Shown: piece by piece, positions 477-41,674 of the stretch
Position numbering within the stretch: position 1 is the stretch's first letter
Layout: each line of letters opens with the position of its first letter
Virus record (IMG/VR): IMGVR_UViG_2657245570_000016
Source of the DNA: a virus
Lineage: Duplodnaviria > Heunggongvirae > Uroviricota > Caudoviricetes
Length of the DNA: 42,242 nt
Direction: 5' to 3' (one strand)
Program-made: the position numbers and the translations under genes
The notes under the pieces: generated by a model
Seen by the model: the letters and a program-made list of their open reading frames with translations, nothing else
Databases searched by the model: none
What the model was told of the DNA's origin: nothing

Positions 477-1874
477 ATGCCGCGCACTGTAACACATAAT
501 CCGGATAGCCCCAATAATGACGATGTTTTAGCCGCATCTGAAAAATGGGACGCCTGTAAACCCCCCTATACCAGCGCACACATGAAAATCTGTGTTGCTG
601 CCGCCAAAATCATCCTCGCTGCTTCCGGCGTGGCTCGCCGTTCCAAATACGAAAAAGAGAACTATCTCCGTATCGATTTCAGCAAAGCCGGTAAGGTTAC
701 ATTTTACGCCGAGTTTCCAAAAAAGATGGGCCTCAAAGGTAAAAAGCTCGGCGAGTGGCCGGAGCTCGCTATCCAGCTGGCGCGCGAAAAAGCGCTAGGT
801 ATGGCTGACGGTGGCCTGCGGGCAGAGTCCGTACATGCAGCGCTGGAAATGTACCGGGATGACCTCAAAGCCAAAGTCGCCCGGCAGAAGCTGAGCCCGG
901 ACAGTTTCACAACCTACGGGGTGCGTATCGACCGGATTAAAGCAACGTTCGGCGAGCGCGAGGTGTTCAGCGACGTAACATACAATCGGCTGGTGGAAGT
1001 GCTGGACGAGTGGATCGCTACTCGCTCGAACAATAACGCCCTGGAGTTGTTTGCCGAGCTCCGTCGGTTCTGGAAGTTCTGCGCACCTACTCTTTGCAAC
1101 GGCCGCAATGTTGCCGCCAGTCTGCCAGATGATTATGTTTCCTCCCGCGTACAGAAACCTACCCCCACACGGCTTTTTACCGATATTGAATCAATCGCCC
1201 GACTCTGGCTCAATGTTGCTGCCTGCACCTCTGTACACCAGAAGAATGCTGTTCGCTTCATGATCATCACTGGTGTTCGTCCGATTAATGTCCATAACCT
1301 GCGCTGGGACTACGTTCACGAGGAGGCTGGTGAAATTGTTTATCCGGAAGGGGTTATCGGCATGCGAGGGGCTATGAAAACACAAAAGGCTTTCCGCCTG
1401 CCGATAACCCCTGAGATCCGGCGGATTATCGACGAGCAGAAAGCCTGGCGTGATTCAGTTCCTGAGTGCAACAGGGATTATGTATTTTTGCAGCCACGTG
1501 ATCCAATGCAGCCATTTTCAAAACGATCACTGGATAAGCTGGTGAAAACATACAGCCCGGACGGGGCTGTAAAAGGAATAAAACATGATGGGACTGTTAA
1601 AGGGAAAGACGGTGCATTTAATACGATGTGCCGTAAATTCCTTAAGAGCAATGTTATTGCCTTGATGAAGGAAAGAGGCTATTCCCGCTCAGACCGAAGG
1701 GAAATCAGCCTCCTTTGCCTTCACCACTCCAGCAAGTCAGATGACCCGATGGCAGAACATTACGACTTTTCTGATGAGATTTTACAGGAAGAGATTGCGT
1801 TGAAGCGCGAAGCTTTCGAGGCTCACGAGCGGAGCATACTTGCGCAGGTGGCATTGCTACGGCGGCGAGGTTAA
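477..1874 (+). CDS. int: Tyrosine-type site-specific integrase
   Basis: The ORF track starts at a TTG (471); the first ATG is at 477 with AGGA 7 nt upstream. C-terminal region has the spaced R...H..R...Y residues expected of a tyrosine recombinase (e.g. LLCLHHSS, AEHYDF). It sits at the prophage end next to an excisionase-like gene. Confidence 0.8.
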   Translation: MPRTVTHNPDSPNNDDVLAASEKWDACKPPYTSAHMKICVAAAKIILAASGVARRSKYEKENYLRIDFSKAGKVTFYAEFPKKMGLKGKKLGEWPELAIQLAREKALGMADGGLRAESVHAALEMYRDDLKAKVARQKLSPDSFTTYGVRIDRIKATFGEREVFSDVTYNRLVEVLDEWIATRSNNNALELFAELRRFWKFCAPTLCNGRNVAASLPDDYVSSRVQKPTPTRLFTDIESIARLWLNVAACTSVHQKNAVRFMIITGVRPINVHNLRWDYVHEEAGEIVYPEGVIGMRGAMKTQKAFRLPITPEIRRIIDEQKAWRDSVPECNRDYVFLQPRDPMQPFSKRSLDKLVKTYSPDGAVKGIKHDGTVKGKDGAFNTMCRKFLKSNVIALMKERGYSRSDRREISLLCLHHSSKSDDPMAEHYDFSDEILQEEIALKREAFEAHERSILAQVALLRRRG

Positions 1875-2071
1875 TACTGGCTGCGACATTTTTGAATAAA
1901 AGCGTCGATATTTCGGCGCTCATAACGAACTACTTTTGCACTGAAACGAATTGGTGCCAGGATAGCCCGATGACGATGCTTAATATTCCACTCACATAGC
2001 GTTTTCTGTGTAATACCTAACTTTTGGCATACTTCATCCGGGGTGAGTAAATCGTCGGGTTTCTCGCTCAT
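1871..2071 (-). CDS. AlpA-family helix-turn-helix regulator / excisionase
   Basis: 66-aa protein with an HTH-like segment (LLTPDEVCQKLGITQKTLCEW); position directly beside int; 4-nt overlap with the upstream helicase gene. Confidence 0.65.
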   Translation of the reverse strand: MSEKPDDLLTPDEVCQKLGITQKTLCEWNIKHRHRAILAPIRFSAKVVRYERRNIDAFIQKCRSQY

Positions 2072-3462
2072 GCTATACCTCTCTTTTTCATGGCATCGAG
2101 CAGGATGTCCTGCACTGTTCGTTTTGAGTTGCGCCGCTCCATCACCATTTCATCCATAGTGTCGGCAGCAATAATGTGGTGAATAAATACCGGACGATTG
2201 TGTCCGGCCTGTATCTGCCTGGTGGGGCCGATACGTTCAATAATTTGCTGATATTGCTCCAGGTCCCACCAGTGTGAGAAAAATACCAGTATATTTCCGC
2301 CGTCCTGCATGTTCAGGCCGTGGCCCGCGCTGGCTGGGTGTGCAAAGAGAACAGGAATCTTTCCGGAATTCCAGTCGCGCAGTGTCTGTGGATCCTGGTC
2401 GAGGTGACGACCGCGAGGGAATGCTTTAAGCAAGCGTTCAAGATCGTGTTTCCAGTGATAAGCAACCAGCACAGGTGCGCCAGCTGCTTCGGTCAGTATG
2501 CTGTCCAGCGCCTGTAGTTTGGTGTCATGCAGTTCTGACCAACTTCCGGTGTCATCTGTGTATACTGCGCCGCTGGCGATTTGCAGACACTTCAGTGTCT
2601 TTGCCGCGGCGTTCGGTGCTTCGATGCCTTCGCCATTCAGCTCGAGGAACATTTCCTTTTCCATTTCACGATACTGCTGACGGGCCTTCGGTGGCATATC
2701 CACGCGGATTACGTTATGGATGGGGTCTTTGATATCGAACCAGTCGGCCGCATCCAGCGAGAGGGTTACATCGGCTAACGCTCGCTGTATTTCACCCTGT
2801 GAGTGAGCAAAAGGCTCCAGTTTGGTCCAGCTCTGCCCCGGAAACTGTATCGAGTTGAACCAGCGTGAGGTAAACGCGCCGTAAGTGCGCCCGAGACGTT
2901 GCCCCTGGTCCACAAACCACGATTGTCCCCACAAATCTACCAGGCCGTTCGGTGCTGGCGTACCGGTGAGATTTATCCAGCGCCGGACATACTTATGCGC
3001 CACTTTGCCCAGCGCCGCCGCGCGCTTACCACCACCGCGCAGCCGGAAGGATTTTAGCCGGGTGCTTTCATCTGGAATGACAGTACCGAACGGCCATCGT
3101 TCTCCCAATTCTTCAATCAGCCAGACAAGGTTATCGTAGTTGATGGTGAACACGCTTGCGTTGCTGTTCGTCAGCGCCATAGAGCGCGCTTTGGCATTAC
3201 CAATAATTGGCTGCACCTCGATATTGCGCAAATGTCCCCACTTCAGTGCTTCATCCGGCCATGTGCTGGCAGCCACGCGCAGCGGCGCGAGGACCAGTGC
3301 GGGGCATGTTTCTGCCCCTGCCATAAAGAGATCTTCCAGCGCAGTGAGCGTTGCCACGGTTTTACCCATTCCCATCCCCGCCCAGATGTTGCCGCGCAGG
3401 GTTTCGGTTTCGTGGTTGATAATGAGAACTTGGTAGGGGCGAGGTATATATTTTGGGGGCAT
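2068..3462 (-). CDS. SNF2-family ATP-dependent helicase
   Basis: Motifs in the translation: Q-motif (PYQ), Walker A GMGMGKT, DExx-like VIPDESTRLK, motif III LTGTPAPN. Confidence 0.85.
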   Translation of the reverse strand: MPPKYIPRPYQVLIINHETETLRGNIWAGMGMGKTVATLTALEDLFMAGAETCPALVLAPLRVAASTWPDEALKWGHLRNIEVQPIIGNAKARSMALTNSNASVFTINYDNLVWLIEELGERWPFGTVIPDESTRLKSFRLRGGGKRAAALGKVAHKYVRRWINLTGTPAPNGLVDLWGQSWFVDQGQRLGRTYGAFTSRWFNSIQFPGQSWTKLEPFAHSQGEIQRALADVTLSLDAADWFDIKDPIHNVIRVDMPPKARQQYREMEKEMFLELNGEGIEAPNAAAKTLKCLQIASGAVYTDDTGSWSELHDTKLQALDSILTEAAGAPVLVAYHWKHDLERLLKAFPRGRHLDQDPQTLRDWNSGKIPVLFAHPASAGHGLNMQDGGNILVFFSHWWDLEQYQQIIERIGPTRQIQAGHNRPVFIHHIIAADTMDEMVMERRNSKRTVQDILLDAMKKRGIA

Positions 3463-3524
3463 ATAATATGGCTCCTAAACAACAAAAGGCCAATTTAGAC
3501 CTTTTGTTGTTTTAAAAATGTTAT

Positions 3525-4442
3525 TTATAATAGTGCTGTTACTATTGCATCTTTAAAAATATTTTCTTCTTCATTTATTAAAGGTGATGACAGATGAATA
3601 ATTACTTCTTTTCCTGTCAATACTATTTGCTCGACTTGAAATCCTGCGTTGTGTAGTCTTTGGCGTAACTTTTCTAGTGCTGATTTTGATATACTAAATC
3701 CTTCACTCCTTATAGTATAACTGGCAACTCCATTTTTAATAATATCTACAGAGTTGTCAATTTCCTGCTGCGAGTAATTTTTCGGTGAGTCGAAAAATCT
3801 GGATTTTGTCGTTGCTGTTGCCCTAAGAGATATCAATAATGATTTGATATCTTTAATCTCAGATGCCAGATACTCAGTTTCTGATACTTCTTTCTGGTCT
3901 AGTTGTGCAACTTTGAAAGTGCCAAAATGTTTGAGGAATGTTGTGTATTCAGGATCAGTTACTGACTTTAAATATGTTTCTTTTATCTTGCTCGCAAGTC
4001 TTTCTTTGAATAAATTGATTGATTGGTATCTTAAATCCGAAGGGTACTCTAAATGTTCAATTGATGAAATGTCAAAGCTATAAGGAGTGCGCTCGTCCTT
4101 AATAATTACGGTCGGTTTGTCAAATGCGAGACGCATTCCTAATTCAAACATTACATTAGCGTTTCGAGCACTTATATCGCAAACAACTATGGGGTTTTCA
4201 TAAAGATTTTGAACAATTCGTTTTTGTATTACTGCAACATCATCATCTGAACTTACCAAATTTGCCTTGAATCCGGCATCATTTGATGCTTCACAAATAA
4301 TGTCATGAACATTTCTCCAATGTCCAGTGGGATAACCTTCTATGTCCGCAATTGGCATAATAATGCCGCATATATGAGGTGGCATATTTTTGTTGTCTTT
4401 TACATCATCTTGGTTTATTTCTTTCGTTTGTTGCTTAGCCAT
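3525..4442 (-). CDS. Hypothetical protein: N-terminal TIR-like / nucleoside 2-deoxyribosyltransferase-like domain plus C-terminal domain of unknown function (about 170 aa)
   Basis: N-terminal ICGIIMPIA...IVVCDISARNANVMFELGMRLAFDKPTVIIKD...SFDISSIEHLEY resembles the conserved core (R.xNV.FE.G ... pSD..G..Y) of TIR-like/deoxyribosyltransferase-like folds. Visibly AT-rich relative to neighbours; good AGGAG Shine-Dalgarno before the ATG at 4440-4442. Confidence 0.5.
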   Translation of the reverse strand: MAKQQTKEINQDDVKDNKNMPPHICGIIMPIADIEGYPTGHWRNVHDIICEASNDAGFKANLVSSDDDVAVIQKRIVQNLYENPIVVCDISARNANVMFELGMRLAFDKPTVIIKDERTPYSFDISSIEHLEYPSDLRYQSINLFKERLASKIKETYLKSVTDPEYTTFLKHFGTFKVAQLDQKEVSETEYLASEIKDIKSLLISLRATATTKSRFFDSPKNYSQQEIDNSVDIIKNGVASYTIRSEGFSISKSALEKLRQRLHNAGFQVEQIVLTGKEVIIHLSSPLINEEENIFKDAIVTALL

Positions 4443-4457
4443 AGCTTACACAGACTC

Positions 4458-4742
4458 CTATTGTAATTTTTTGCCTAATATACATGAAAGCTCCTTACTA
4501 TCCAGTACTACCACGGTAAAGCCCAGTTTTCGCAGACGTTCATGCTCGCGCAACTGATCAGGTCGTGGTGGTTTGCCTGGTGCTTTGCATTCGACAAAGA
4601 CGATGCGACCGCCGGGTAGCAGAACAATGCGATCTGGTACCGAGCGGAGACCGGGAGATACGAACTTAAAGGCAACCCCGCCAGCCTTTTTTACTTCAGC
4701 GACGAGGTGCTTTTCGATTAGGTTTTCACGTTCATAGGCCAT
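4458..4742 (-). CDS. VRR-NUC domain nuclease (PD-(D/E)XK fold)
   Basis: VPDRIVLLPGGRIVFVECKAPGKPPRPDQL contains the PD...E-C-K catalytic arrangement of VRR-NUC proteins; commonly found beside SNF2 helicases in phages. Confidence 0.8.
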   Translation of the reverse strand: MAYERENLIEKHLVAEVKKAGGVAFKFVSPGLRSVPDRIVLLPGGRIVFVECKAPGKPPRPDQLREHERLRKLGFTVVVLDSKELSCILGKKLQ

Positions 4743-4936
4743 TAGCTTTCGCCTTCCTGCTTTTTGCGTTTCTTCATGCAGATAGCGCAGTTCTCAGGAT
4801 GGTCATGCCATTCGTCAATCCTGATACCTGTGAACATCCATTTTCCGCATAGTGATATGGCTTCCCCCGAATTAAAGAAATGTGCTTTTTTCGACAGGGC
4901 GGGGAACCCCCAACCTTTATTATCGATATTAGACAT
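4742..4936 (-). CDS. Small putative zinc-binding phage protein
   Basis: 64 aa with C-x12-H-x-H-x5-C-x2-C spacing (LCGKW...WHDHPENCAIC) and a basic tail; its stop overlaps the VRR-NUC start (TAATG on the minus strand). Confidence 0.45.
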   Translation of the reverse strand: MSNIDNKGWGFPALSKKAHFFNSGEAISLCGKWMFTGIRIDEWHDHPENCAICMKKRKKQEGES

Positions 4937-5120
4937 CGTCCACCTCCTTACGCTTTTCGCGCATGTTCTGCATCAGACAAAAATCAAACCGACGTTCGCT
5001 TTGGCCCAGACCTGCATCGCCCGGTCGTACCCGCTGGACTGTTCAAGGCGCAAAGCCTCCCGTGCAGTCCGGTAATAAAGCGGACTGTCCCGGTATTTAA
5101 ATGACATAGGGTTTTTATTC

Positions 5121-5147
5121 CCAAATAAAAAACCCCGCAATGCAGGG
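5121..5147 (-). terminator. Rho-independent terminator-like hairpin read on the minus strand
   Basis: Minus-strand RNA would form CCCUGC-AUU-GCGGGG (6-bp stem with one G-U pair) followed by UUUUUUAUUU. It lies about 25 nt downstream of the stop of the 5172..5933 gene. Confidence 0.5.
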
Positions 5148-5171
5148 TTGTAATCAACAATAAGGGGGTAA

Positions 5172-5933
5172 TTACGAGGAAGCGTTAGCTATTTGAGCTT
5201 GTGTAAATTCGAAACCAGAATTTTGTAACCGTTGCACTAGACGAGGAACTGTTTCACGTACATGGTCGTTGAAATTCAGATACAAAATCCCGTTAGCATC
5301 AGAAGGCTGTTCTAGGTGCTGTTTCTGAAGGATTGCTACATTGCTGCGCCCTAAGGACGAAAGAAGCATACCCATCTCGAGTACAACGTTCTGTCTTGCG
5401 CGGGGTTGGATTTCTGCTTCACCGGCGCGCTTTGAGTATCCCATATCATCAGGTGTCAAAAGAACAATCCCGAAACGAGTAGCAGTTTGTCCTTGCCCAA
5501 TTTCACGTTCAAGCTCTTCAATAATGGTGAGTCCAGTCCCTCCCGTATTCTGCAAAATGAAATGGTCTGGTAATCCAAGTTTATGAAGGATTAGCTCAAG
5601 TTGTTCCTTTGCAGTATGGTCATGGCCGTGAACAATGAATATCTTTTTGGGAAGCTCAGATGGCTGTTCTACGGCTAGTGGTGTTGCCGTGGGGGGCGTT
5701 CCTAAATGGGACATTATTGCAGTTTCAACATTGGGACGTTCTTGAGGGTTCCCTTGAAACTGAATGGTCCGGGTGGTGTAAAGGTTAACAATTACGCCAT
5801 TCGTTAAACGATAGCAGTCATAAGTCTCACGCTGTTCGTGGGAAAAATTGGTGAACCCACACTCCCTCAAAAAGTCAGGAAAAGATTCTCTCGGGTATGG
5901 ATAGTTGATCGGCATTTCAGTTAGTTCCTGCAT
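5172..5933 (-). CDS. Hypothetical protein: N-terminal domain of unknown function (about 90 aa) plus C-terminal TIR-like domain (Cap12/PycTIR-type predicted nucleotide-binding fold)
   Basis: C-terminal KKIFIVHGHDH...FGIVLLTPDD...RARQNVVLEMGMLLSSLGRSNVAILQK...PSDANGILYL matches my recollection of the TIR-like consensus (FIvHG ... TPDD ... RaRqNVvfElG ... pSD..G..y). GC content looks lower than the flanking pol gene. AAAGGA Shine-Dalgarno before the ATG. Confidence 0.55.
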   Translation of the reverse strand: MQELTEMPINYPYPRESFPDFLRECGFTNFSHEQRETYDCYRLTNGVIVNLYTTRTIQFQGNPQERPNVETAIMSHLGTPPTATPLAVEQPSELPKKIFIVHGHDHTAKEQLELILHKLGLPDHFILQNTGGTGLTIIEELEREIGQGQTATRFGIVLLTPDDMGYSKRAGEAEIQPRARQNVVLEMGMLLSSLGRSNVAILQKQHLEQPSDANGILYLNFNDHVRETVPRLVQRLQNSGFEFTQAQIANASS

Positions 5934-5997
5934 AAGTATTGTTCCTTTAATTTACTCGAATTCAGCATGTCGCCATAGCTCGATAAGGTGAGTTATA

Positions 5998-8061
5998 TCA
6001 ATCTTTTTTGTAGTGGTACGCCTCAAAGCCGCCAGCGTTCAGCGGAATATCGGGTGCCCATTCGGGGTTAGTGGAGAGAAGCGCGGAAAGCGCTTTATCG
6101 TTGAAATCTTCTGTGTCTGGTGCTTCGGTGATCACCTCGTCGTGTACCGTTAGCACAATGCTGTAACCGGCACCCTCGATCAGCGGCATGTTTCTGGCTA
6201 GAACGTCGCGGGCGGCCGCCTGGGTGACGTTCTCCACCAGCTTTCCGCCGTAGGTTTTGAGTCGTTGCCATTTACGCGAATAAGAGTTAACACCCATGTA
6301 GGTGATATTCCCTTGTTCGATAACCGGAGACGGGTAGCATACAGCGCGTCCGGATGGTAGCTGTATGCGCAGCCACGCGCCATCACGTCGGATTTTAAGA
6401 TAGCCGCAATACAATGTTTTTTGCGGTGTGGCGATTGCTGTGCGGACAGTGCGCTCCAGCTCGTACCAGAAATCGCAGGTCGCCGGGTGCGCCCTGCGCC
6501 ACAGGCGCTTGAGCGAGTCACATGCGATGAATACACGCTCGGACAGGCCAAAGGTCGACTTACGCTTAACCGATTCGTCGTACCAGCTTTTTGCCTCGCG
6601 GATAACATCGCGGGGAATGTTTGGCAGTGCGGCGTTCGCCAGCTCGTCGAGATCGAGACCGTAAACCAGAGCAAAAGTGATGAAAGCCGATACACCACCT
6701 CCATAACCCAGACCGAGTTCCATGACTTTACCGATCTGACGCATGTGTTTATCAACATCATCTGGTGCAATATCGAAAGCTTTTGCATACGCCAGTTTAT
6801 ATAAGTCCGGACCCGTTCCAGCGTCATACTCTCTGAATGCATTCAGTTTCCATTCTTCTCCCGCCAGCCATGCCAGCATACGGCCTTCAATGTTTGACAA
6901 GTCACTTACCACTAGTTTTTTGCCTGTTGGCGCGATAATGCAGCCACGTAACGCTGAACTGGTTAGTTCCATGATATTGTCAAACAGCAGGTCTGCACAT
7001 CCGGCTTTCAGTGCTTCGATGCCTTCGTCTATTTGTTCCTGTTTTAGTGAAGGGCGGGGAAGGTTCTGGGGCTGGAATAGCCGTCCGGCCCAACGACCGG
7101 TACGTGACGCCCCGCAGAACTGTAGCGTACCGCGTAAGCGCCCGTCGTGGCTTACGCCTTTCATCAGTGCCTTGTATTTACTGGTGCTGGTAGTACTGGC
7201 TTGCAGGCGGATAGCCAGCAGTTCTTTCACGGCAGATGATAAATCGGGGTCGGCCATACGACGTTCCAGGGTACTGCGTTGCATGTCTGGTAGCTCCACA
7301 CCGTAGGATTCAACGATGTGCTTAATCAACGCGTCCCGTTGTGTGGCTGCCTGCACTTCGCCATCAGTCATTTCCTGTGTACGCTTTGCCAGGCGCTTTT
7401 GCTCCTGGTCTACCGCTTCGATCGCAGCGCGCGCGAGTTGCATGTCCATGCAGACGCCCCGGTCGTTGATCTGCTGATCACGATGCCAGAGCGCCAGCTC
7501 TGTCCCCTGATAATTCCACTTCGGCAGACGTTTATAGACTTCACGCATTGCTTCGATATCCAGTCCGGCGTAAGCAACAAAGCGCCGCCATTCTTCCGGA
7601 TGGGTTTTACTGGTGGCCCGACGCAGTTTGCTGTTTTTCGGACGTGGCTTACAGAACAGCTGGATCAGCGCTTTACCTTCTTTGTCCTTCGCTTTGTCTT
7701 GCGGGACGCCTAGTACTTCGCAGAGTTCCCCCAGAGACCCCGGGAGACCGTGCGCCAGCGCCTGCACCATCGTGTCGCGCCAACGTTCGACTGGCGGTGC
7801 CAGTCGCGGCATTGCATAACGCAGAACGGTGCGGTCGAAGTGAGAGTTATGGAAATAAAGCAGGGTTTCAGGGTCTGCGATTGCTTCGTATAAGCCGTGT
7901 GGAATACCACCACCGGCAGTGATATCCCACACGTTTACTGGCCCGTCGTTGATAGCCCATGCGAAAAGCATCACTTCAACGCCTTCGGCATACGCATGGG
8001 TACCGTTCGTAATAGGGATTTCGCAATAGGTTTCCAGGTCGCCCCATAGTATATTGGACAT
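5998..8061 (-). CDS. Family A (Pol I-like) DNA polymerase with N-terminal 3'-5' exonuclease domain
   Basis: 687 aa; N-terminal exonuclease motif (GDLETY) then a long polymerase region; a typical partner of DUF2800/DUF2815/VRR-NUC/SNF2 replication modules. Confidence 0.8.
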
Positions 8062-8107
8062 GTGTTTACCTAGGTTTTTATTCTATTAACTGATTAAAAG
8101 ATTAATT

Positions 8108-8737
8108 ATGCATATGATCCAATACTTGATTGACCATACAGAGCATCTGGAGAAAATAGCTGGATATATTTTTTCATGTTTGATTGTTATGGGAGTCTGG
8201 ATAAGAAAGATCATTTTTAATTATAAGTATAAAGAGCCTAAATATGTCAAGAAGTTAATTTTATATTTAATTAAGTATGAACGTTATCTGGATAAGGAGG
8301 ATAAGAAAGCCATAGAAAAAAGAATAAATGATAAAATTATTCGTGATGCGCTGAAATTGCAATCCTCTTATAACCGAAGAGATGTTATTTACATTTGCAA
8401 TAGATTAGAAAAAAGACAGTATATAAATCAGTTGATTAAGCTTCAGAATTATATAGAGAAAGATAACGGAGTGTTTTTTATTAATGTTGATTTTTCAGGT
8501 TTTTTATTTATTATTAGTCGTCTGTTTTCCTTTCTGTGTTTTGTGCTGTTTACCCTTTTTTCTATTATCTGCATTATTTCCATAGGGCAAAATGAAGGCC
8601 TTTTAAATTATCTTGTGTATATGGTTATGATAATAGTTTTAGAGACTGTTGGTTTTTGGATGTATGATACTTTCCCGTCTAAGAAAAAGATCTGTGAACT
8701 AAATAAAGAATTGAGAAAGATTAAGATTCCTGAGTGA
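8108..8737 (+). CDS. Hypothetical integral membrane protein (AT-rich moron on the opposite strand)
   Basis: Strongly AT-rich coding sequence. Predicted N-terminal transmembrane helix (IAGYIFSCLIVMGVWI), a Lys/Tyr-rich soluble middle, and two C-terminal hydrophobic helices. Convergent with the flanking early genes. Confidence 0.55.
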   Translation: MHMIQYLIDHTEHLEKIAGYIFSCLIVMGVWIRKIIFNYKYKEPKYVKKLILYLIKYERYLDKEDKKAIEKRINDKIIRDALKLQSSYNRRDVIYICNRLEKRQYINQLIKLQNYIEKDNGVFFINVDFSGFLFIISRLFSFLCFVLFTLFSIICIISIGQNEGLLNYLVYMVMIIVLETVGFWMYDTFPSKKKICELNKELRKIKIPE

Positions 8738-8755
8738 TTATACGCCTAATCAGTA

Positions 8756-8774
8756 GCCCGGTGTTTAACCGGGC
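8756..8774. terminator. Hairpin between convergent genes (possible bidirectional terminator; no clear U-tract)
   Basis: GCCCGGT-GTTTA-ACCGGGC, a perfect 7-bp stem between the 8108..8737 (+) and 8790..9338 (-) stops. Confidence 0.3.
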
Positions 8775-8789
8775 GTCTATGAAGTAGGG

Positions 8790-9338
8790 TTAAATTAGTG
8801 CTTCAGCATCAGCACCTTCGCTGATATCGTCGAAATCGTCAGCGCTTGCCACTCCGCCGCCAGCGAATGCATCGCCGTCTCGCAGGAACTGGACTCCGCC
8901 GAGTGAGGCATTAATGCGTTTACCGAAATTATTGTCCTGTGCCCAGATATCGATAACGGCGTTTACATAGCACCCTGCATAAGGACGTCCGTCAGCCTGA
9001 ATAAGTGGCGAACGATCGCGATCAAGAACAGCTGGGCGCGCTTTGTTAGCAGCATTCAGGAAGAAATTGCCGGGGAAGCCTTCATACTCTGCTTTTTCAT
9101 CACCATCATGCAGGCACAGATTGAGTTTTTTCTCCAGCTGGTTATAAATGGGCTCCCACTTCTCTCCCCATTTTTCCTTCGCTACCTGCTTCATAGCTTT
9201 ACGGATTTCTTCCAGTTGTGGGTGTTTGGGAGACATTAAAAATACTGCGGAGAAACGCGGATCGCCTTCGCCGTTTACAGTTTTAGCTTCAAACAGAGAC
9301 GGGAAGGCCAGACGAACATTGTTCAGCTTCAGTTTCAT
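8790..9338 (-). CDS. DUF2815-like phage protein (putative ssDNA-binding / replication accessory)
   Basis: N-terminus MKLKLNNVRLAFPSLFEAK and acidic C-terminal tail as I recall for DUF2815 proteins; adjacent to a DUF2800-like nuclease. Confidence 0.6.
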   Translation of the reverse strand: MKLKLNNVRLAFPSLFEAKTVNGEGDPRFSAVFLMSPKHPQLEEIRKAMKQVAKEKWGEKWEPIYNQLEKKLNLCLHDGDEKAEYEGFPGNFFLNAANKARPAVLDRDRSPLIQADGRPYAGCYVNAVIDIWAQDNNFGKRINASLGGVQFLRDGDAFAGGGVASADDFDDISEGADAEALI

Positions 9339-9353
9339 GGGTATTTCCTTAAA

Positions 9354-10655
9354 TCAGATGAGGTCTGCGGTTAGCGTATCGTCGGATACGTCGTCGAAAT
9401 CATTTACAGGGTTGATATTGAGTGCGGGGCGTGGGTCTGACTCGGGAACGACGGTTGGTTTACCATCAGCTCGTGTTATCAGTGCCTCGACTTTTGACCA
9501 ACGGCGTGGACTGGCCTTTTTGATAAGTTTTTCGGCTTTTGTGGGACTAATAAGTTTAAAGTCGAATACTTCTTCAGTTTTGTACCTGAACTGGTCCTTC
9601 AGAAGTGCGCGAGCTGCCTCTTCATCACTCCAGGCCCGGTTACCTTGTTTTCCTGTTACCAGTTTAAACCCCGGTACCGGATGTCCGGCATTGAGTTCAT
9701 TGTGAACCCGGTCCCGTACTGCCTTTAGCCAGGACTCAATAAAGTCGGCCTGGCTATAGATCTCCGCAAGCTGCTCAATGGTTAACAGAGGTACACGTGC
9801 GCTGGCATTGGTGATTATTTCGCTGACAGGCTTTGTCAGATCTTCAAAGTCGCTGGCCGCTGTTTGTAAATGCTGCATTTTCTGGGCAGTGCAAATAGCT
9901 TTTGCTTTACAGAAGCGGCACTGCTTTTCTCCAGGTATGAAGTTTTCCAGCGGTAGTGTCTCAATGCCTTCGCATTCAGCAATATTGAGAACAAGGATCG
10001 CACTGGTTGCGGCCTCCTGTGCTCGTTTACCGAAAGACTGAAGTTCCTGCACGGTTAACGACCATTCTGAAACGTGGTTGAGCCTTGGCTGGTGAATAAA
10101 TAATCTTACAGTCTCAAAGTCATACAGCATGCTGAATTGTTCGAGAGCACCCAGAGCATACAGTTGTAGTTGCTCATTTTGTTCTGCATCAATGCGGACG
10201 CCTTTGCCATATTTCAGGTCGTGGATTTGTAATTCGCTACCAGCGATGATTATGCCGTCGGCAGTTCCGAAAGATTCTTCCACACCCGTTATATGTGAGA
10301 AATCAACACGTTGTTCAACCAATAGTTCATTATTCTGTGCAAGAGTCCAGACCGTATCAACATACCGGCCAACGGCTTCGACCATTTCATCATCCACCTG
10401 TGGGCCAGATGTATCATCAGGATTTTCGCGAAGGGGGTATGAGCCGAGAAACATAGAAACATTGCATCCGGCGTAGTGTTCCGGGTGGCTTTGCCTGTTT
10501 CGTAGAACTTTTTCAGCAAGCGCGTGCGCTGCAGTGCCCTCGATTGCAAAAGTTGTTTCTTTATCCGGTTGTGTGGCCTCCAGCGCCAGACTTCCTGGGC
10601 AGCGCATCCATCGATGCGCTGATGATGGAGAAAGTTGTGCATGAACGTCTGGCAT
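9354..10655 (-). CDS. DUF2800 / Cas4-like PD-(D/E)XK nuclease
   Basis: N-terminal [14 protein letters not shown] motif plus a cysteine cluster ([10 protein letters not shown]) consistent with Cas4/RecB-like nucleases. Confidence 0.65.
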
Positions 10656-10657
10656 GA

Positions 10658-11560
10658 TTAACCCTCCAGTGCTTTTTCAGCCAGGGTGATTACTTCAGCG
10701 AGATTTTCATCCGTTACTTCACCAAGTTTCCTGGCTCCCTGTTTTTCCAGAATTGCAATAGCTTCTGCCCGGTAACCCCCTTTTGCTAACTGGAGGATCA
10801 ACCCTTCAGCTTGTTTGCGTAGTGCCGCGAAATCAATTGTATGGTCATCTTTGGCGTCATTATTCTGGCTGGAATTTGCTGTGTCTCTGCGTGCAAATTC
10901 TTCCTGCAGCTGAAGGTACTCAACACGGTTGGTCTCGATATGGCCTTTTTTCAGCATCTCGTTCAACTTGCGTAAGGTGTGGAGTTCACTGGCTGCTGTG
11001 CCGGATACATTTTTGACGTAAAACGGCCCCGTGCGTTCTCCATCTTTGTTACTGGCCTTTTTCGGCTTAACTTCATCACGCCCATCCGCAGGTGCATCAA
11101 GTAGCTGCTCGGCAAAAGCACGTCGCTCGCCGATGGTTGGCAGGTCGTCCCAGAACTTAAGGATGTTACGGGACAGGTCCAGGAGAGCAGGTTTAAGCAG
11201 CGCCCTGGCTCGTTTGACGCCCTGCAATGCGCTGTCGAGAGCATCAATCTGAACTACTCGTTTATCGCCTTCAGCATCACGGTAGGCAACAGCACGTTGC
11301 AGCATGTCTTCTGTGATAGGGGTGGCTACTGGGTAGAAACCAGCCAGTGCGATAACGTCGCTGAACTCCAGATCATCCAGTGTCATTGCCGCTGACATAT
11401 TTTCAGTTTCAGTTGCTGTATCCCGACATTCCTGCACTCGTGAAATCGTGTCAGGATGCATAACAATACCTGATGCCATTGTGCGGATAAGACGTTCAAG
11501 CAGCGCATTATGTTGTGCCAGAAGTTGATTATTAAGTTCGAGACTGGTTTCTAAACTCAT
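10658..11560 (-). CDS. Hypothetical phage early protein
   Basis: 300-aa ORF in the early-left operon, 3 nt from the downstream gene; no recognisable motif. Confidence 0.5.
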
Positions 11561-11706
11561 ACTGTGGTCCTCGCTACAAGGAGAATGAAAGTGATGATCA
11601 GACCGAGCGCAGTGGCAACGGCCAGACCGGTCATCAAATCGAAGTTTTTACGGCGATAACGGAGAACATCGCGCCCCGTCAGTCGATAGAGGTGTTCAGG
11701 TTTCAT
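11557..11706 (-). CDS. Small hydrophobic protein (49 aa), first ORF of the early-left operon
   Basis: Hand translation [49 protein letters not shown]; its stop overlaps the start of the next gene (ATGA). Below the ORF-track length cutoff. Confidence 0.35.
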   Translation of the reverse strand: MKPEHLYRLTGRDVLRYRRKNFDLMTGLAVATALGLIITFILLVARTTV

Positions 11707-11930: not shown

Positions 11931-12500
11931 ATGTCTGAAGAAAAAGGAATTCTTTCCCGGATAACTGAATCGTTATCCGGCGTGGGAGGAGCAATTAAAG
12001 GCGCGGTTGGAGCAGCAAGAGAGATTCAGAATCTGACTGTCGACTATGCAGTTAAAGAGAAGACGCACACCTTACTCGATAAGCTAATGGATGTTCAGAT
12101 GCAGCAAATGTCGCTTCAGGAGCTGCTGATTGCGGCTAAGGAGAAAATTGTTGAACTGGAAAATGAGAAAGTAAAGCAAGAGAACTGGGCCGCTGAAGCG
12201 GCGAGCTATGAACTTTACCAGCCTATGCGGGGTACTCTGGTCTATCGCAGCAAGCTTTCTGCAGATACTGACCAATCTCCGGTTTATATTTGTCCCAATT
12301 GCTACGAGCAAAAGAGAAAATCTATATTGCAAGCGGAAGGTCTGGTTATTAAGCCAGGCCTTGGGCGAGCCGTTAATATGGTTTGTTCGCACTGTAGGGC
12401 TTCCTATCTGTTCAACCGAAATGCTTTAGAGGCCAGACTGCCTGCTGAAGATGAAAATCCGGGGAAGGCAATCACGGATTACGATCCTTACAACCAGTAA
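11931..12500 (+). CDS. Hypothetical protein with N-terminal coiled-coil and C-terminal CxxC...CxxC zinc ribbon
   Basis: 189 aa; heptad-like QMQQMSLQELLIAAKEKIVELENEKVKQ region; CPNC ... CSHC pairs; own ATG; transcribed opposite to the early-left operon and convergent with cI. Confidence 0.55.
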   Translation: MSEEKGILSRITESLSGVGGAIKGAVGAAREIQNLTVDYAVKEKTHTLLDKLMDVQMQQMSLQELLIAAKEKIVELENEKVKQENWAAEAASYELYQPMRGTLVYRSKLSADTDQSPVYICPNCYEQKRKSILQAEGLVIKPGLGRAVNMVCSHCRASYLFNRNALEARLPAEDENPGKAITDYDPYNQ

Positions 12501-34397: not shown

Positions 34398-34732
34398 TGA
34401 AACGGTTATGTTTGGCGTTAGTTATGATGGTTACTGCTCCGGCGATGGCTGCAATTCAGTGCGGCAACTACACGATGACCGGTGACGGAATGACTGTTAT
34501 TAACGGTGAAACTGTCACATCACAGAAGATAAAATTTCTGGGAAAAGATGGTGACTATTCAAACATGAAAATGGACATGGGCCTGATGCCTTCCCGTGAT
34601 GGTAACAATTACGGCTTTGAGTTTGTGAAACGTAACGGAAAAGCTTTCCTGAACGTCCAGCTGCTGCAGAACAGCATGGACGCGCCGAAAATCATTGGAT
34701 CTTTCCCGTGTAAAAAAGTGAGCAGCAAGTGA
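34397..34732 (+). CDS. Secreted small protein (signal peptide), moron-like
   Basis: N-terminal signal peptide MKRLCLALVMMVTAPAMA|A; lower GC than flanking tail genes; TAATG overlap with the upstream gene. Confidence 0.5.
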   Translation: MKRLCLALVMMVTAPAMAAIQCGNYTMTGDGMTVINGETVTSQKIKFLGKDGDYSNMKMDMGLMPSRDGNNYGFEFVKRNGKAFLNVQLLQNSMDAPKIIGSFPCKKVSSK

Positions 34733-35241
34733 CAGTTGATGATGATCCTTTGAATTCATTTCAAGACCCTGACTTTCAGGAACTTCTCGGCGGAATTGAT
34801 ATTACTCTTGTTATAAGGTTTTTTAATTATTTTTCGCGTTTCGAATATGCGTTAAAAAGAATTAATTTCAAAAAAACTGATCGTAGAAATTATCTAATCG
34901 GTGCTGACTGGAGCCGCTACGCTACTGATGATACGCGGCCTTTATATCCTACTGGAAATAGAAATGTCGATAGGGCAGTTGAGTATCTATGTCAGCAACC
35001 TGTGAAGCAGCAGAGGCATGATTTTTCGTGGGAGGATAAACCTCCAATCGAACCTCATTCTCTTGCTGAAGCATTAAAGCAGATCCCGTATATAAGAAAT
35101 AATCTCTTTCACGGCGGGAAGTATTTACGTCCCGCCCCCGTTCGTGATGAAAAGTTATTGAAATACTCTATTTATTTGATGCAGTTGTGTTTGATAACTG
35201 ATAATCAGCTTTCTGAATACTTTAATACTATCCACCGATAG
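34729..35241 (+). CDS. Hypothetical AT-rich protein with an Rx4H (HEPN-like) motif, moron-like
   Basis: Strongly AT-rich; GTG start overlapping the previous stop; contains IRNNLFHGGKY; followed by a terminator. Confidence 0.45.
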   Translation: MTVDDDPLNSFQDPDFQELLGGIDITLVIRFFNYFSRFEYALKRINFKKTDRRNYLIGADWSRYATDDTRPLYPTGNRNVDRAVEYLCQQPVKQQRHDFSWEDKPPIEPHSLAEALKQIPYIRNNLFHGGKYLRPAPVRDEKLLKYSIYLMQLCLITDNQLSEYFNTIHR

Positions 35242-40828: not shown

Positions 40829-41674
40829 CTATTGGCGAAGTGGCCATATTTTTCTGTTTTTTAAAAAACTATCTTCAACTATATAACTGCAACAATGTTC
40901 ACTAAGGCCATAAAAACTAATTATTCCATATTTATGAGAAGCTATATCAGACAGTTCTGCTAATACTGTGGCAAGCCAACGAGCGATGCTAAGAGAATAG
41001 AATCTTCCCCACTTTTGAACAATGGTATTTTGTCCAGTACGGATGGAGGCTGATATAAGGTCTTGCATAATGTTGGTACTTTCATTCATATACATGACCG
41101 TTGTATACGGTGAAAGAGTGGCATTGATAAACCTAGCATTTTCTTCAACACGTCTTTGTTCAACTGTATAATAATAATGTTTTTCAAGGATACTCTCGGC
41201 TACTTCTCCCCACCATTTATTAATAGGTTCATTATTGGTTAAATTGGGGCTGCTTAATGAGGAGAAATTTGCGTAACGTCCCCGTCGGGCATCAGCAAAG
41301 GAATCTAAACATTCAAGTATTTTGTAGGTAATTTTATGTGTAGGACGTGAATATCTCAGAGATAGTTGCATTTTTTTAGAAATACTATCAACCTCGTTGG
41401 TTAATTCAATGAGCTTATGTCCAAATTTTCTTACAATATTCTCATCAGGCATTTTCCCTTTGTGTTCAATGGCATAGTGTGCAACAAGTATTAGTTTAGC
41501 AAGTCTCTCAAAACCTACAGAAAGCCCAAAAAATGCTGTGTAATATTCACCTATTTTGTCTGCATAATTGGCTTTACCTATGGCTGTTGCCCCAGAACCA
41601 ATGAGCTGTGTAACTAAAGATGCTTCTCGGCCCAGAGCGTGCCATGCTGGAATATCCCAGGGATTTTTATTCAC
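40829..41674 (-). CDS. Hypothetical protein (281 aa), AT-rich cargo gene
   Basis: Long ORF in visibly AT-rich DNA; no motif I can assign confidently. Confidence 0.5.
   Translation of the reverse strand: MNKNPWDIPAWHALGREASLVTQLIGSGATAIGKANYADKIGEYYTAFFGLSVGFERLAKLILVAHYAIEHKGKMPDENIVRKFGHKLIELTNEVDSISKKMQLSLRYSRPTHKITYKILECLDSFADARRGRYANFSSLSSPNLTNNEPINKWWGEVAESILEKHYYYTVEQRRVEENARFINATLSPYTTVMYMNESTNIMQDLISASIRTGQNTIVQKWGRFYSLSIARWLATVLAELSDIASHKYGIISFYGLSEHCCSYIVEDSFLKNRKIWPLRQ

Follow-up and report, generated by a model that had tools for sequence, protein, structure and literature searches.

What is the role of a single AT-rich gene that is read against the direction of a phage's leftward operon, and why is it found between a polymerase gene and the gene of a DNA-binding protein? 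We addressed this question for the open reading frame (ORF) at 8108..8737 on the plus strand of the window, i.e., the whole stretch of 42,242 nucleotides that was analysed. The element carrying this ORF is a myovirus prophage of E. coli at yfhL with a leftward integrase-to-immunity operon.

An AT-rich gene on the opposite strand of the leftward operon

The ORF starts with ATG and encodes 209 aa (the stop codon is included in the coordinates), and the PGAP entry for the identical DNA is the same call, WP_000551014.1, a hypothetical protein. It is flanked on the left by the gene of a family A DNA polymerase (5998..8061, minus strand; Pfam DNA_pol_A, 2.4e-14) and on the right by that of a DUF2815/Enc34-type ssDNA-binding protein (8790..9338, minus strand; Pfam PF10991, 7.6e-44). 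The GC content of the ORF was 0.287, compared with 0.54 and 0.486 in the flanking 1.4 kb on the left and right, respectively, and 0.492 in the entire window. A low GC content (0.26–0.31) characterized the whole variable cargo cassette of 728 bp (8062..8789, no strand assigned), whose ends abut exactly the start codon of pol (8059–8061) on one side and the stop codon of DUF2815 (8790–8792) on the other, both on the minus strand. A sequence-only reading of this DNA had placed a strongly AT-rich ORF on this strand between the polymerase and DUF2815 genes, and these results bear it out. The same reading had called the ORF the only plus-strand gene of the leftward operon; as expected, every other gene in the annotated identical prophage was on the minus strand over the stretch bounded by the excisionase-like HTH gene and the operon start (L002 2972–12807, approximately 1871–11706 of the window).

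A stop-free run of 209 codons has a chance of ~3e-9 at the base composition of the ORF. The Shine–Dalgarno sequence is weak. M1 or M3, not M28, is the supported start because homologues align from residue 1–4 to the end. Within the subfamily of 199-aa homologues described below, dN/dS was 0.11–0.15 at dS above 1; among near-identical E. coli alleles it was only ~0.3, a value derived from 13 differences. Two of the six E. coli alleles inspected were damaged, by K63* in DEC5B and by an in-frame 31-codon deletion in F1022; these two had been chosen since they were flagged as unannotated or partly matching. In ETEC H10407, the gene was intact though the prophage polymerase was frameshifted. Judged from its sequence, ORF 8108..8737 is a real protein-coding gene under selection.

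The cassette occupies a hypervariable slot

Homology of the flanks to relatives stopped at ...tattggacat on the left and restarted at ttaaattagtgcttcag on the right. The flanks of the slot were present in 159 of 5426 complete E. coli genomes (about 3%); 67 of the 159 carried the present gene, and 13 carried the gene of a 199-aa distant homologue with 18% identity and an unchanged layout, which occupied the same slot in one Klebsiella aerogenes prophage as well. The remaining flank-bearing genomes held unrelated cargo, namely BRO-N, AntA/AntB, Nmad5 with or without other plus-strand ORFs, or HNH. Kinship with the other plus-strand cargo of the slot (an 89-aa protein with two transmembrane (TM) segments and a 229-aa protein) was considered, and the comparison gave no homology. 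The ribosome-binding region of the polymerase gene sits within the cassette, and the sequence just ahead of the pol ATG is supplied by the cassette and differs in each alternative one. Nothing specific on the slot, on the accession of the protein, or on the phages by name turned up in the literature searched, nor did any mention of a PolA–DUF2815 SSB hotspot.

The locus resembles morons and hotspot cargo (HK97 gp15; P2 Orf30, old, and tin; P2/P4 defence hotspots) in its presence or absence between collinear genomes, its deviant base composition, its solitary gene, and a homologue in the P2 S–V slot of the nonessential Orf30. The protein is, however, not homologous to P2 Orf30 (hhalign 0.8%), and HK97 gp15 has only 62 aa. 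The earlier interpretation of the gene as a moron held up: the cassette is of foreign composition, close relatives have unrelated genes in the slot, and solitary homologues occur in other slots and in defence islands. We consider it very probable that the locus is a moron: a cargo cassette that is self-contained and mobile by horizontal transfer, housed in a hypervariable slot within the leftward replication operon of a temperate myovirus. Six of eight randomly picked loci of unknown function in P4 hotspots gave phage resistance (PMC13586616), and genes of unknown function in hotspots of this kind frequently turn out to be defensive (PMC13586616; see also PMC9122126).

The product is a small inner-membrane protein

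ORF 8108..8737 encodes a small inner-membrane protein. Three TM helices had been proposed from the letters of this DNA. TM2 (about residues 129–160) was clear-cut, with a Kyte–Doolittle (KD) value of 2.85 and an additive Hessa dG of −4.6 kcal/mol, whereas TM1 and TM3 were only marginal: KD was 1.7 and additive Hessa dG +1.9 to +3.6 for TM1 (codons 17–33; 8156..8206, plus strand), and KD was 1.94 and dG +0.8 to +2.4 for TM3 (residues 165–186), which contains E178. Both were nevertheless much more hydrophobic than the soluble part, which scored +15 to +21, and both were long helices in the AF2 model and were kept among homologues. TM1 falls inside one long AF2 helix (residues 2–37). TM2 and TM3, joined by a QNEG loop (residues 161–164), form the C-terminal TM hairpin (codons 129–186; 8492..8665, plus strand) according to KD, dG, and AF2, which placed helices at 132–160 and 165–188. 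The AF2 model from a single sequence was useless (pLDDT 54), and that from the 18-sequence alignment had a pLDDT of 80.7.

The Lys/Tyr-rich cytoplasmic region of the sequence-only reading was likewise recovered. The whole protein contains 11.0% K and 7.2% Y, and the basic segment at codons 34–128 (8207..8491, plus strand) contains 23 K+R against 13 D+E; therefore, it should be cytoplasmic according to the positive-inside rule. AF2 predicted four helices (43–56, 63–82, 90–99, and 103–111) and a beta-hairpin (116–119/122–125) in this domain, whose motif YLxKYxxYLxxxDKxxIxxxIxxEI is common to the 199-aa subfamily. Three acidic residues and one basic residue precede TM1 and a K/R-rich stretch follows it, suggesting that the N-terminus lies outside. 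At the other end, codons 187–209 (8666..8734, plus strand) are predicted from alignments and charge to form a cytoplasmic amphipathic helix; it contains 7 K+R and holds the only family-invariant residues (N199 and L202) as well as the near-invariant I195 and K204. The probable topology, as modelled, is thus a short N-terminus outside, TM1, a basic cytoplasmic domain of ~95 aa, the TM2–TM3 hairpin, and a cytoplasmic C-terminal helix, and only 16 aa of the N-terminus and the 4-aa loop would be exposed to the periplasm.

A narrow family on mobile elements of Enterobacterales

Starting from the single sequence, k-mer seeding across 5.8 billion proteins brought up only its own cluster; relatives came within reach only with an exhaustive HMMER search. 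This search gave 10 matches among 1.84 billion representatives, i.e., the family is very narrow. It is confined to Enterobacterales, and its members are always AT-rich, solitary, and located on mobile elements. Length and layout were kept in homologues at 23–43% identity and held down to 18–26% identity. The 199-aa protein of the slot is a full-length distant homologue (hhalign probability 96.5%, E 7e-10, 190 columns), compared with 0.1–0.8% for five phage proteins that are not related to it, among them another TM protein of the slot. In the family alignment (A3), homology was full-length and the common layout was TM1, the basic cytoplasmic domain, the TM hairpin, and a C-terminal PxxxxIxxxNxxLxK helix. 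The full profile of phrog_10579 (PHROGs v4) matched at E 7e-107 and represents one and the same protein family; it carries no function, and it differs in that it opens at M28 and omits the N-terminal 27 residues common to distant homologues.

Searches of Pfam, NCBIfam, PDB, and BFVD gave no similarity to a validated defence, Sie, or Abi family, and the profile search of PDB sequences returned nothing. PADLOC-DB v2.0.0 HMMs did not match the protein of the window, and across 18 family members they gave only stray weak partial matches (PDC-S47 at 4e-4 over 77 residues in one member; other stray scores were REase_II at 0.005 and a SLATT model at 0.085). No match was obtained with tblastn against plasmids, and tblastn against phages gave three identical phages and nothing else. 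As far as these comparisons of sequence and profile reach, the family is one that was not described before and has no relative among Pfam, NCBIfam, PADLOC, PDB, and BFVD. Separately, a PDC-S35 TIR gene was observed inside the window, 2 kb from ORF 8108..8737.

The surroundings of the homologues were diverse. One homologue was in the P2 S–V slot, in the place that Orf30 has in P2, one adjoined Q in a lambdoid prophage, and a P8-type homologue of a metagenomic phage lay antisense between RecT and a PAPS-reductase gene. A Serratia homologue with 44% identity, found in a search for related loci built on the four closest sequences, lay in an integrase island, with a PtuA/PtuB-like (Septu-like) pair and a type I HsdS as neighbours. 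Another adjoined a dGTPase defence gene (5.5e-144) and a GAPS4 nuclease, one was near a Tlde1-domain gene, and some were solitary chromosomal islets. An Enterobacter island retained just the cassette with ~80 bp per flank, and this copy was still under purifying selection. The association of the family with defence genes is drawn from a handful of contexts. Retention of the gene beside a frameshifted polymerase, in the Enterobacter remnant island, and in solitary islets argues for a phage-independent value to the host.

Comparison with known exclusion proteins

SieB excludes superinfecting phages abortively and has its own promoter, which is active in the prophage. According to the record annotations, lambda sieB lies at 34482–35036 on the plus strand, and P22 sieB has its own promoter with a mapped RNA start. 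Both SieB proteins (Pfam PF14163) are membrane proteins of ~190 aa, and their genes run against the leftward early (pL) operon in which they are embedded. By analogy of placement alone, the position of our gene on the opposite strand of a leftward early operon mirrors that of lambda and P22 sieB. However, hhalign of A3 against lambda SieB and P22 SieB gave 0.1% each, and the Pfam search of the ORF protein gave no SieB match at E<=1, whereas lambda SieB itself matched PF14163 at 1e-29. The hydrophobic segments of SieB are in the N-terminal half and are followed by a soluble C-terminal domain, whereas here TM1 is followed by a soluble domain and a TM hairpin. An Esc-like internal start, considered at M28, was rejected: M28 is not conserved, whereas the N-terminal 27 residues are in homologues. 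In addition, our gene is carried by a myovirus, whose replication module is of the PolA/DUF2815/DUF2800 kind, and not by a lambdoid phage.

[quoted passage not shown] Our protein is likewise small and located in the inner membrane, with three TM helices predicted, and it is further similar in having conserved residues in the cytoplasmic C-terminal part and in the divergent types at one locus (here two subfamilies with 18% identity); in SieA, the single gene is expressed by the prophage. It differs in that hhalign gave a probability of 0.3%, SieA has no cytoplasmic domain of ~95 aa, and the SieA gene is located between the ejection-protein and tailspike genes rather than in a replication operon. 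The FxRYPxEAxxFNK motif of SieA (PMC10883804) was missing from family alignment A3. Homology to SieB, SieA, or P2 Orf30 was rejected on the hhalign values of 0.1%, 0.3%, and 0.8%, respectively.

Promoter-like match and hairpin

Upstream of the ORF, the consensus scan gave a weak promoter-like match, TGGACA-18-TATTCT (8055..8084, plus strand), whose −35 element overlaps the polymerase start codon. The scan found 5 sites in the region and 4.3 +/- 1.9 in shuffles, which is chance level, and the match was not kept upstream of the 199-aa allele. A conserved promoter within the 5' end of pol was also considered and rejected, as no acceptable −35/−10 pair was found there.

Downstream, the hairpin that had been described as shared with the convergent gene was confirmed in part. 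The cassette contains a GC-rich 7-bp hairpin (8756..8774, no strand assigned), GCCCGGU/ACCGGGC at 8756–8762/8768–8774 with a loop of 5 nt, between both convergent stop codons. The wider fold around it was stable (dG −22.8 kcal/mol; z against shuffles −3.4 on the plus strand and −2.8 on the minus strand). However, a terminator role was not borne out: the hairpin has a U-tract on neither strand, which counts against an intrinsic bidirectional terminator, and the terminator scan gave no call. The hairpin was missing downstream of the alternative cargo of L003, and an Rfam scan of 7800–9000 gave no match.

Possible function and alternative explanations

The architecture and neighbourhood make it plausible that the gene is expressed in lysogeny for superinfection exclusion or abortive infection. 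Anti-phage exclusion of any kind has close to an even chance of being the function; the mechanism that we favour, a post-entry one that is SieB-like or of the abortive-infection type, is more doubtful. In the proposed scheme, a plus-strand promoter of its own would drive the gene as long as the repressor holds the leftward early operon off, and the product would protect the lysogen from other phages. DNA of 29% GC is likely H-NS-silenced in E. coli, which counts against expression. [quoted passage not shown] Upon induction, early transcription on its way to the polymerase would have to run antisense through the whole gene and may therefore damp it, as would be the logic for sieB of lambda and P22. 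Nearly all of the mass and all invariant residues of the modelled protein are cytoplasmic, and sensing from inside fits this better than a periplasmic block.

An entry block like that of SieA would disturb the genome-delivery conduit and keep DNA out, such that the cell survives and nothing is aborted. The shared pattern of about 200 aa, three TM segments, and invariant residues in a cytoplasmic C-terminal helix speaks for it, as do the two subfamilies with 18% identity in one slot, comparable to the SieA types that are ~25% identical (PMC10883804). However, we regard it as rather unlikely in view of the hhalign result against P22 SieA, the tiny periplasmic exposure, and the fact that homologues adjoin Septu-like, RM, and dGTPase genes in defence islands outside prophages. 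To our knowledge, classic homotypic Sie genes are typically absent from such defence islands. Lysogenic conversion unrelated to phages is unlikely, too; the protein would be, for example, an orphan immunity protein against toxins that target membranes (pore-forming colicins, T6SS effectors, or CDI effectors), or else it would modulate envelope stress or a protein of the host's inner membrane. A solitary small membrane protein that is found on mobile elements, under purifying selection, and kept outside phages would suit this explanation, and one homologue is near the Tlde1-domain gene. Immunity genes of pore-forming colicins are likewise AT-rich, encode multi-TM proteins, and stand opposite to their operon, which favours the immunity reading. 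On the other hand, the Pfam search gave no colicin or immunity family match, a large basic cytoplasmic domain is atypical of proteins conferring immunity to pore-forming toxins, and no toxin gene was consistently adjacent in the contexts inspected.

The gene may also be a selfish or near-neutral passenger, either a membrane-toxic gene of the addiction type or an H-NS-silenced xenogeneic insert with a near-inert protein, which would persist because the slot tolerates insertions. Its extreme AT-richness, weak translation signals, and very narrow family (10 matches) are consistent with this, as are the dN/dS of ~0.3 and the nonsense and in-frame-deletion alleles in E. coli. We nevertheless hold it to be improbable: between subfamily members dN/dS was 0.11–0.15 at saturating dS, length and layout were conserved to 18–26% identity, the gene was kept where the surrounding prophage was lost, and no partner antitoxin gene was evident. 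That the gene serves the lytic cycle of its phage, for instance in lysis timing (holin- or antiholin-like), anchoring of replication to the membrane, or control of polymerase expression, is highly improbable. The site between replication genes is suggestive, each cassette brings its own pol ribosome-binding region, and there was a faint PHROG holin match; however, its E value was only 0.37, and the prophage encodes its own lambda-family holin and endolysin cassette elsewhere. Moreover, close prophages have unrelated genes, or no TM protein, in the slot, the gene is antisense to the operon active in lytic growth, and homologues exist outside phages.

Returning to anti-phage exclusion, we tentatively propose, at somewhat less than an even chance, that the family is an unrecognised single-gene inner-membrane anti-phage family that PADLOC, Pfam, and NCBIfam miss, with divergent alleles across unrelated temperate-phage slots (PolA–DUF2815, P2 S–V, lambdoid Q-proximal, and RecT-proximal) and chromosomal Enterobacterales defence islands. 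Even without an anti-phage function, the locus shows cleanly, and with well-defined boundaries, how cassettes are exchanged at a junction between phage genes. If the protein does exclude phages, its presence in the ST38, ETEC H10407, and O55:H7 lineages would bear on host range in phage therapy. If phage exclusion is true, a compact single-gene membrane defence family would be added to the catalogue of prophage-encoded immunity, and the PolA–SSB junction of a prophage type that about 3% of complete E. coli genomes contain would be a defined and previously undescribed defence hotspot. Early transcription of the phage itself would then turn off the antisense-embedded genes of this slot, and with this antisense-in-operon layout self-exclusion would have been solved in the manner of sieB a second time, independently.

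Results

A swappable cassette between the polymerase and DUF2815 genes

The window was a complete temperate myovirus prophage inserted between the E. coli genes yfhL and yfhH, and the region was identical in phages vB_EcoM-606R2, -689R2 and -611R5 and in many chromosomes. We confirmed an ATG-initiated ORF of 209 codons at 8108-8737 on the plus strand (WP_000551014.1, a 'hypothetical protein' at NCBI), hereafter the cargo gene. Its GC content was 0.287, compared with 0.540 and 0.486 in the 1.4 kb on either side and 0.492 in the whole window; it was the window's deepest AT trough, in line with the strong AT-richness described in the sequence-only reading. The chance of 209 stop-free codons at this composition was ~3e-9, indicating a coding sequence rather than an accidental ORF. 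The earlier claim that it is the sole plus-strand gene in the leftward operon held in the NCBI annotation of identical DNA, where it stood alone within a minus-strand run from an excisionase-like gene to the leftward operon start. This run includes SNF2 helicase, VRR-NUC, ANR, TIR, PolA, DUF2815 and DUF2800 genes, among others.

Homology to related prophages broke off exactly at the polymerase start codon (...tattggacat) and resumed exactly at the DUF2815 stop codon (ttaaattagtgcttcag...), which defines a variable cassette at 8062-8789. Among 5426 complete E. coli genomes, 159 contained the flanks of this slot. The cargo gene filled it in 67 genomes (97.7-100% identity, all chromosomal, single copy each) and a different plus-strand gene of 199 aa in 13; the remaining flank-bearing genomes carried Nmad5, BRO-N, AntA/AntB or HNH genes. 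Nmad5 occurred alone or with an extra plus-strand ORF between it and the polymerase, encoding either a 229-aa soluble protein (2224-2913 in relative L005) or an 89-aa 2-TM protein (2219-2488 in relative L006). Neither had a Pfam match or was related to the cargo-gene family, indicating that the slot repeatedly houses antisense genes of differing kinds. The sequence directly upstream of the polymerase ATG differed by cassette and was brought by each; therefore, the cassette provides the polymerase's translation-initiation region. The cargo gene is mobile and travels as a one-gene cassette; its product is a conserved, predicted inner-membrane protein.

A 7-bp GC-rich hairpin (8756-8762/8768-8774) was present 3' of the cargo gene between the two convergent stop codons, as proposed earlier, and the wider fold around it reached -22.8 kcal/mol (z = -3.4); neither strand carried a U-run, and scanning for terminators gave no call. 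The only promoter-like match upstream of the gene was TGGACA-18-TATTCT (8055-8084), and such matches were no commoner than in shuffled sequence. The Shine-Dalgarno sequence was weak. The gene had been read as a moron, and the comparative and compositional evidence upheld this; with the promoter match at chance level and the hairpin lacking a U-run, a promoter and terminator of its own are putative.

Topology and family of the cargo protein

Hydropathy of the 209-aa protein supported one unambiguous TM helix, TM2 (residues 129-160; Kyte-Doolittle 2.85; additive Hessa dG -4.6 kcal/mol). The other two of the three helices first predicted were marginal, namely TM3 (165-186; 1.94; +0.8 to +2.4 kcal/mol) and TM1 (17-33; 1.7; +1.9 to +3.6 kcal/mol); all other residues formed the soluble part (+15 to +21 kcal/mol). 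The N-terminal 16 residues contained 3 acidic and 1 basic, segment 34-128 contained 23 K+R and the C-terminal tail 7 K+R, and a 4-residue loop, QNEG, joined TM2 to TM3. Lys made up 11% and Tyr 7.2% of all residues of the protein, in keeping with the Lys/Tyr-rich cytoplasmic region of the sequence-only reading. We considered the charge distribution decisive for orientation; in the likely topology, TM1 follows an outside N-terminus and leads into a ~95-aa cytoplasmic domain, and the TM hairpin after it returns the chain to a C-terminal helix that is also cytoplasmic. Without TM1 insertion, only the hairpin loop would be non-cytoplasmic, and both models predict that nearly the whole protein faces the cytoplasm.

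A k-mer-seeded search did not reach beyond the 90% cluster of the protein itself (456 members, all 'hypothetical'), and the exact sequence occurred on at least 986 contigs. Searched exhaustively with HMMER, 1.84 billion representatives gave just 10 matches, including full-length relatives of 209-218 aa, and one of 261 aa, at 23-43% identity. Relatives aligned from residue 1-4 through to the end, supporting M1 or M3 as the start. By profile match (7e-107), the protein is a member of phrog_10579, a PHROG with no assigned function. The PHROGs profile begins at M28, which is not conserved. The 27 residues before it (8108-8188; Y6, H10, E12 motif) are conserved in distant homologues, so phrog_10579 and some phage annotations seem to be missing N-terminal sequence.

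The ~210-aa subfamily profile matched the 199-aa slot protein in hhalign at 96.5% probability (E 7e-10, 190 collinear columns, 18% identity). Controls against lambda SieB, P22 SieB, P22 SieA and P2 Orf30, and against the slot's two other plus-strand cargo proteins, one of them 2-TM, scored 0.1-0.8%, indicating that the match was not a composition artefact. On this profile comparison, the 199-aa protein is a distant homologue of the cargo protein. Only N199 and L202 were invariant in the family, with I195 and K204 near-invariant, and all four lay within the predicted cytoplasmic C-terminal helix; the cytoplasmic domain was marked by the motif YLxKYxxYLxxxDKxxIxxxIxxEI. Family members had no meaningful match in Pfam, NCBIfam or PADLOC, and the family profile had none in the PDB.

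Selection and occurrence outside the slot

Between 199-aa members, dN/dS was 0.11-0.15 at dS 1.3-1.7, and in the ~210-aa subfamily synonymous sites were saturated (pN 0.27-0.40). Of the changes among the near-identical E. coli alleles, 8 were non-synonymous and 5 synonymous (dN/dS ~0.3-0.4, a weak signal), and the flanking genes of the slot gave 0.05-0.16. Two alleles were damaged, that of O55:H7 DEC5B by a nonsense change (K63*) and that of strain F1022 by an in-frame deletion of 31 codons.

All relatives were AT-rich compared with their surroundings (GC 0.28-0.40 vs 0.41-0.58), solitary, and on or adjoining a mobile element. The 199-aa homologue occupied the same PolA/DUF2815 slot in a Klebsiella aerogenes prophage. 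Another relative lay between gpS and gpV of a Rahnella P2-like prophage, the slot that in P2 holds the nonessential, opposite-strand Orf30. In a lambdoid prophage, a relative directly upstream of antiterminator Q adjoined a dGTPase defence gene (5.5e-144), a GAPS4-type nuclease and a methylase/HNH pair. Relatives also lay antisense between RecT and PAPS-reductase genes (metagenomic phage contig), antisense beside a DUF1367 gene with an integrase nearby (another prophage), near TraG_N genes (another element), alongside Tad2-like and HicA genes (another island), and as a lone chromosomal islet flanked by thrS and an SLT gene. The Serratia sp. Ag1 relative (44% identity) was in a P4-type-integrase island, adjoining a PtuA/PtuB-like (Septu-type) pair and a type I HsdS.

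In ETEC H10407 (L008 926-3000), the prophage polymerase was frameshifted and the cargo gene intact; the polymerase was also interrupted in strain VL40 (L004 1-2072). Members of this prophage group are thus decaying in some hosts with their slot cargo intact. Enterobacter sp. ECC-019 (CP143759, L029 5920-6683) had lost all of the prophage except the 199-aa cargo gene with ~80 bp on each side, from the 5' end of the polymerase gene (start codon destroyed) and the 3' end of the DUF2815 gene. This remnant sat in a CbtA/CbeA/antirestriction island, and its cargo copy was constrained as much as prophage copies. The cargo gene is dispensable for the phage and kept outside phages.

Other genes of note in the prophage

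Directly downstream of the polymerase was a gene for a 253-aa CAP12/Pycsar-type TIR protein (5172-5933, minus; Pfam PF10137, 2.9e-31; PADLOC candidate single-gene system PDC-S35, 1.2e-108). It was missing in several relatives, where the ANR regulator abutted the polymerase, indicating a second variable cargo site in the same operon. The ANR-family gene here (~4929-5107, minus), between the TIR gene and an upstream small ORF, was frameshifted according to NCBI in the identical prophage L002 (6030-6208).

The genes for SNF2 helicase and VRR-NUC enclosed a second AT-rich island (GC ~0.31). Its 305-aa ORF (3525-4442, minus) had no Pfam family and only a weak, partial PADLOC TIR-effector match (1.1e-6, residues 54-134). 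A third island (GC ~0.34), at the prophage right end after a tail-fibre and truncated-recombinase segment, held a GTG-initiated 281-aa ORF (40829-41674, minus) with no match in Pfam or PADLOC, probably a further cargo gene at the prophage-host junction. Between the leftward operon start and the repressor gene, a 189-aa ORF (11931-12500, plus), with two CxxC pairs and an N-half resembling a coiled coil, had no Pfam or PADLOC family; the Klebsiella aerogenes relative conserved this ORF at the same position (L028 9789-10358).

Discussion

Judging from the architecture, a gene antisense to a repressor-silenced operon could be expressed in the lysogen, and early leftward transcription would have to cross it en route to the polymerase; therefore, cargo-protein synthesis should drop on induction. 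Neighbourhood and precedent suggest that the product may exclude other phages. In P4 hotspots, six of eight randomly picked unknown-function loci gave phage resistance (PMC13586616). The same build is found in lambda, where sieB (34482-35036, plus) has ral and N as its neighbours, and in P22, where sieB lies between ral and gene 24 and has its own promoter with a mapped RNA start. By analogy, the cargo gene may be likened in placement and action to sieB-type and sieA-type exclusion genes. Membership in the SieB or SieA family itself was rejected on the sequence features that define them.

Because nearly all of the protein is predicted to be cytoplasmic and its relatives occur in general defence islands, our tentative first choice is a mechanism that acts after entry, SieB-like or abortive: on sensing an infection-specific factor through its cytoplasmic domain, the protein would damage the membrane with its TM hairpin. 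A SieA-like block of entry ranks next and seems unlikely; the parallel is a real one, as SieA has three TMs and a cytoplasmic motif conserved near its C-terminus, and occurs as divergent types at one locus (PMC10883804). We regard as somewhat less probable still, and equally so, a lysogenic-conversion role unrelated to phages, such as toxin immunity, and a selfish or silenced passenger. A lytic-cycle role is highly improbable; the H10407 and ECC-019 cases point to retention for the benefit of the host rather than for lytic growth of the phage.

We found no mention of a PolA-DUF2815 hotspot in the literature searched. The protein family is novel in sequence; its category, a prophage membrane-protein moron, is familiar and would not surprise a specialist. 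The cargo gene offers an unusually clean case, and it occurs in clinically relevant lineages.
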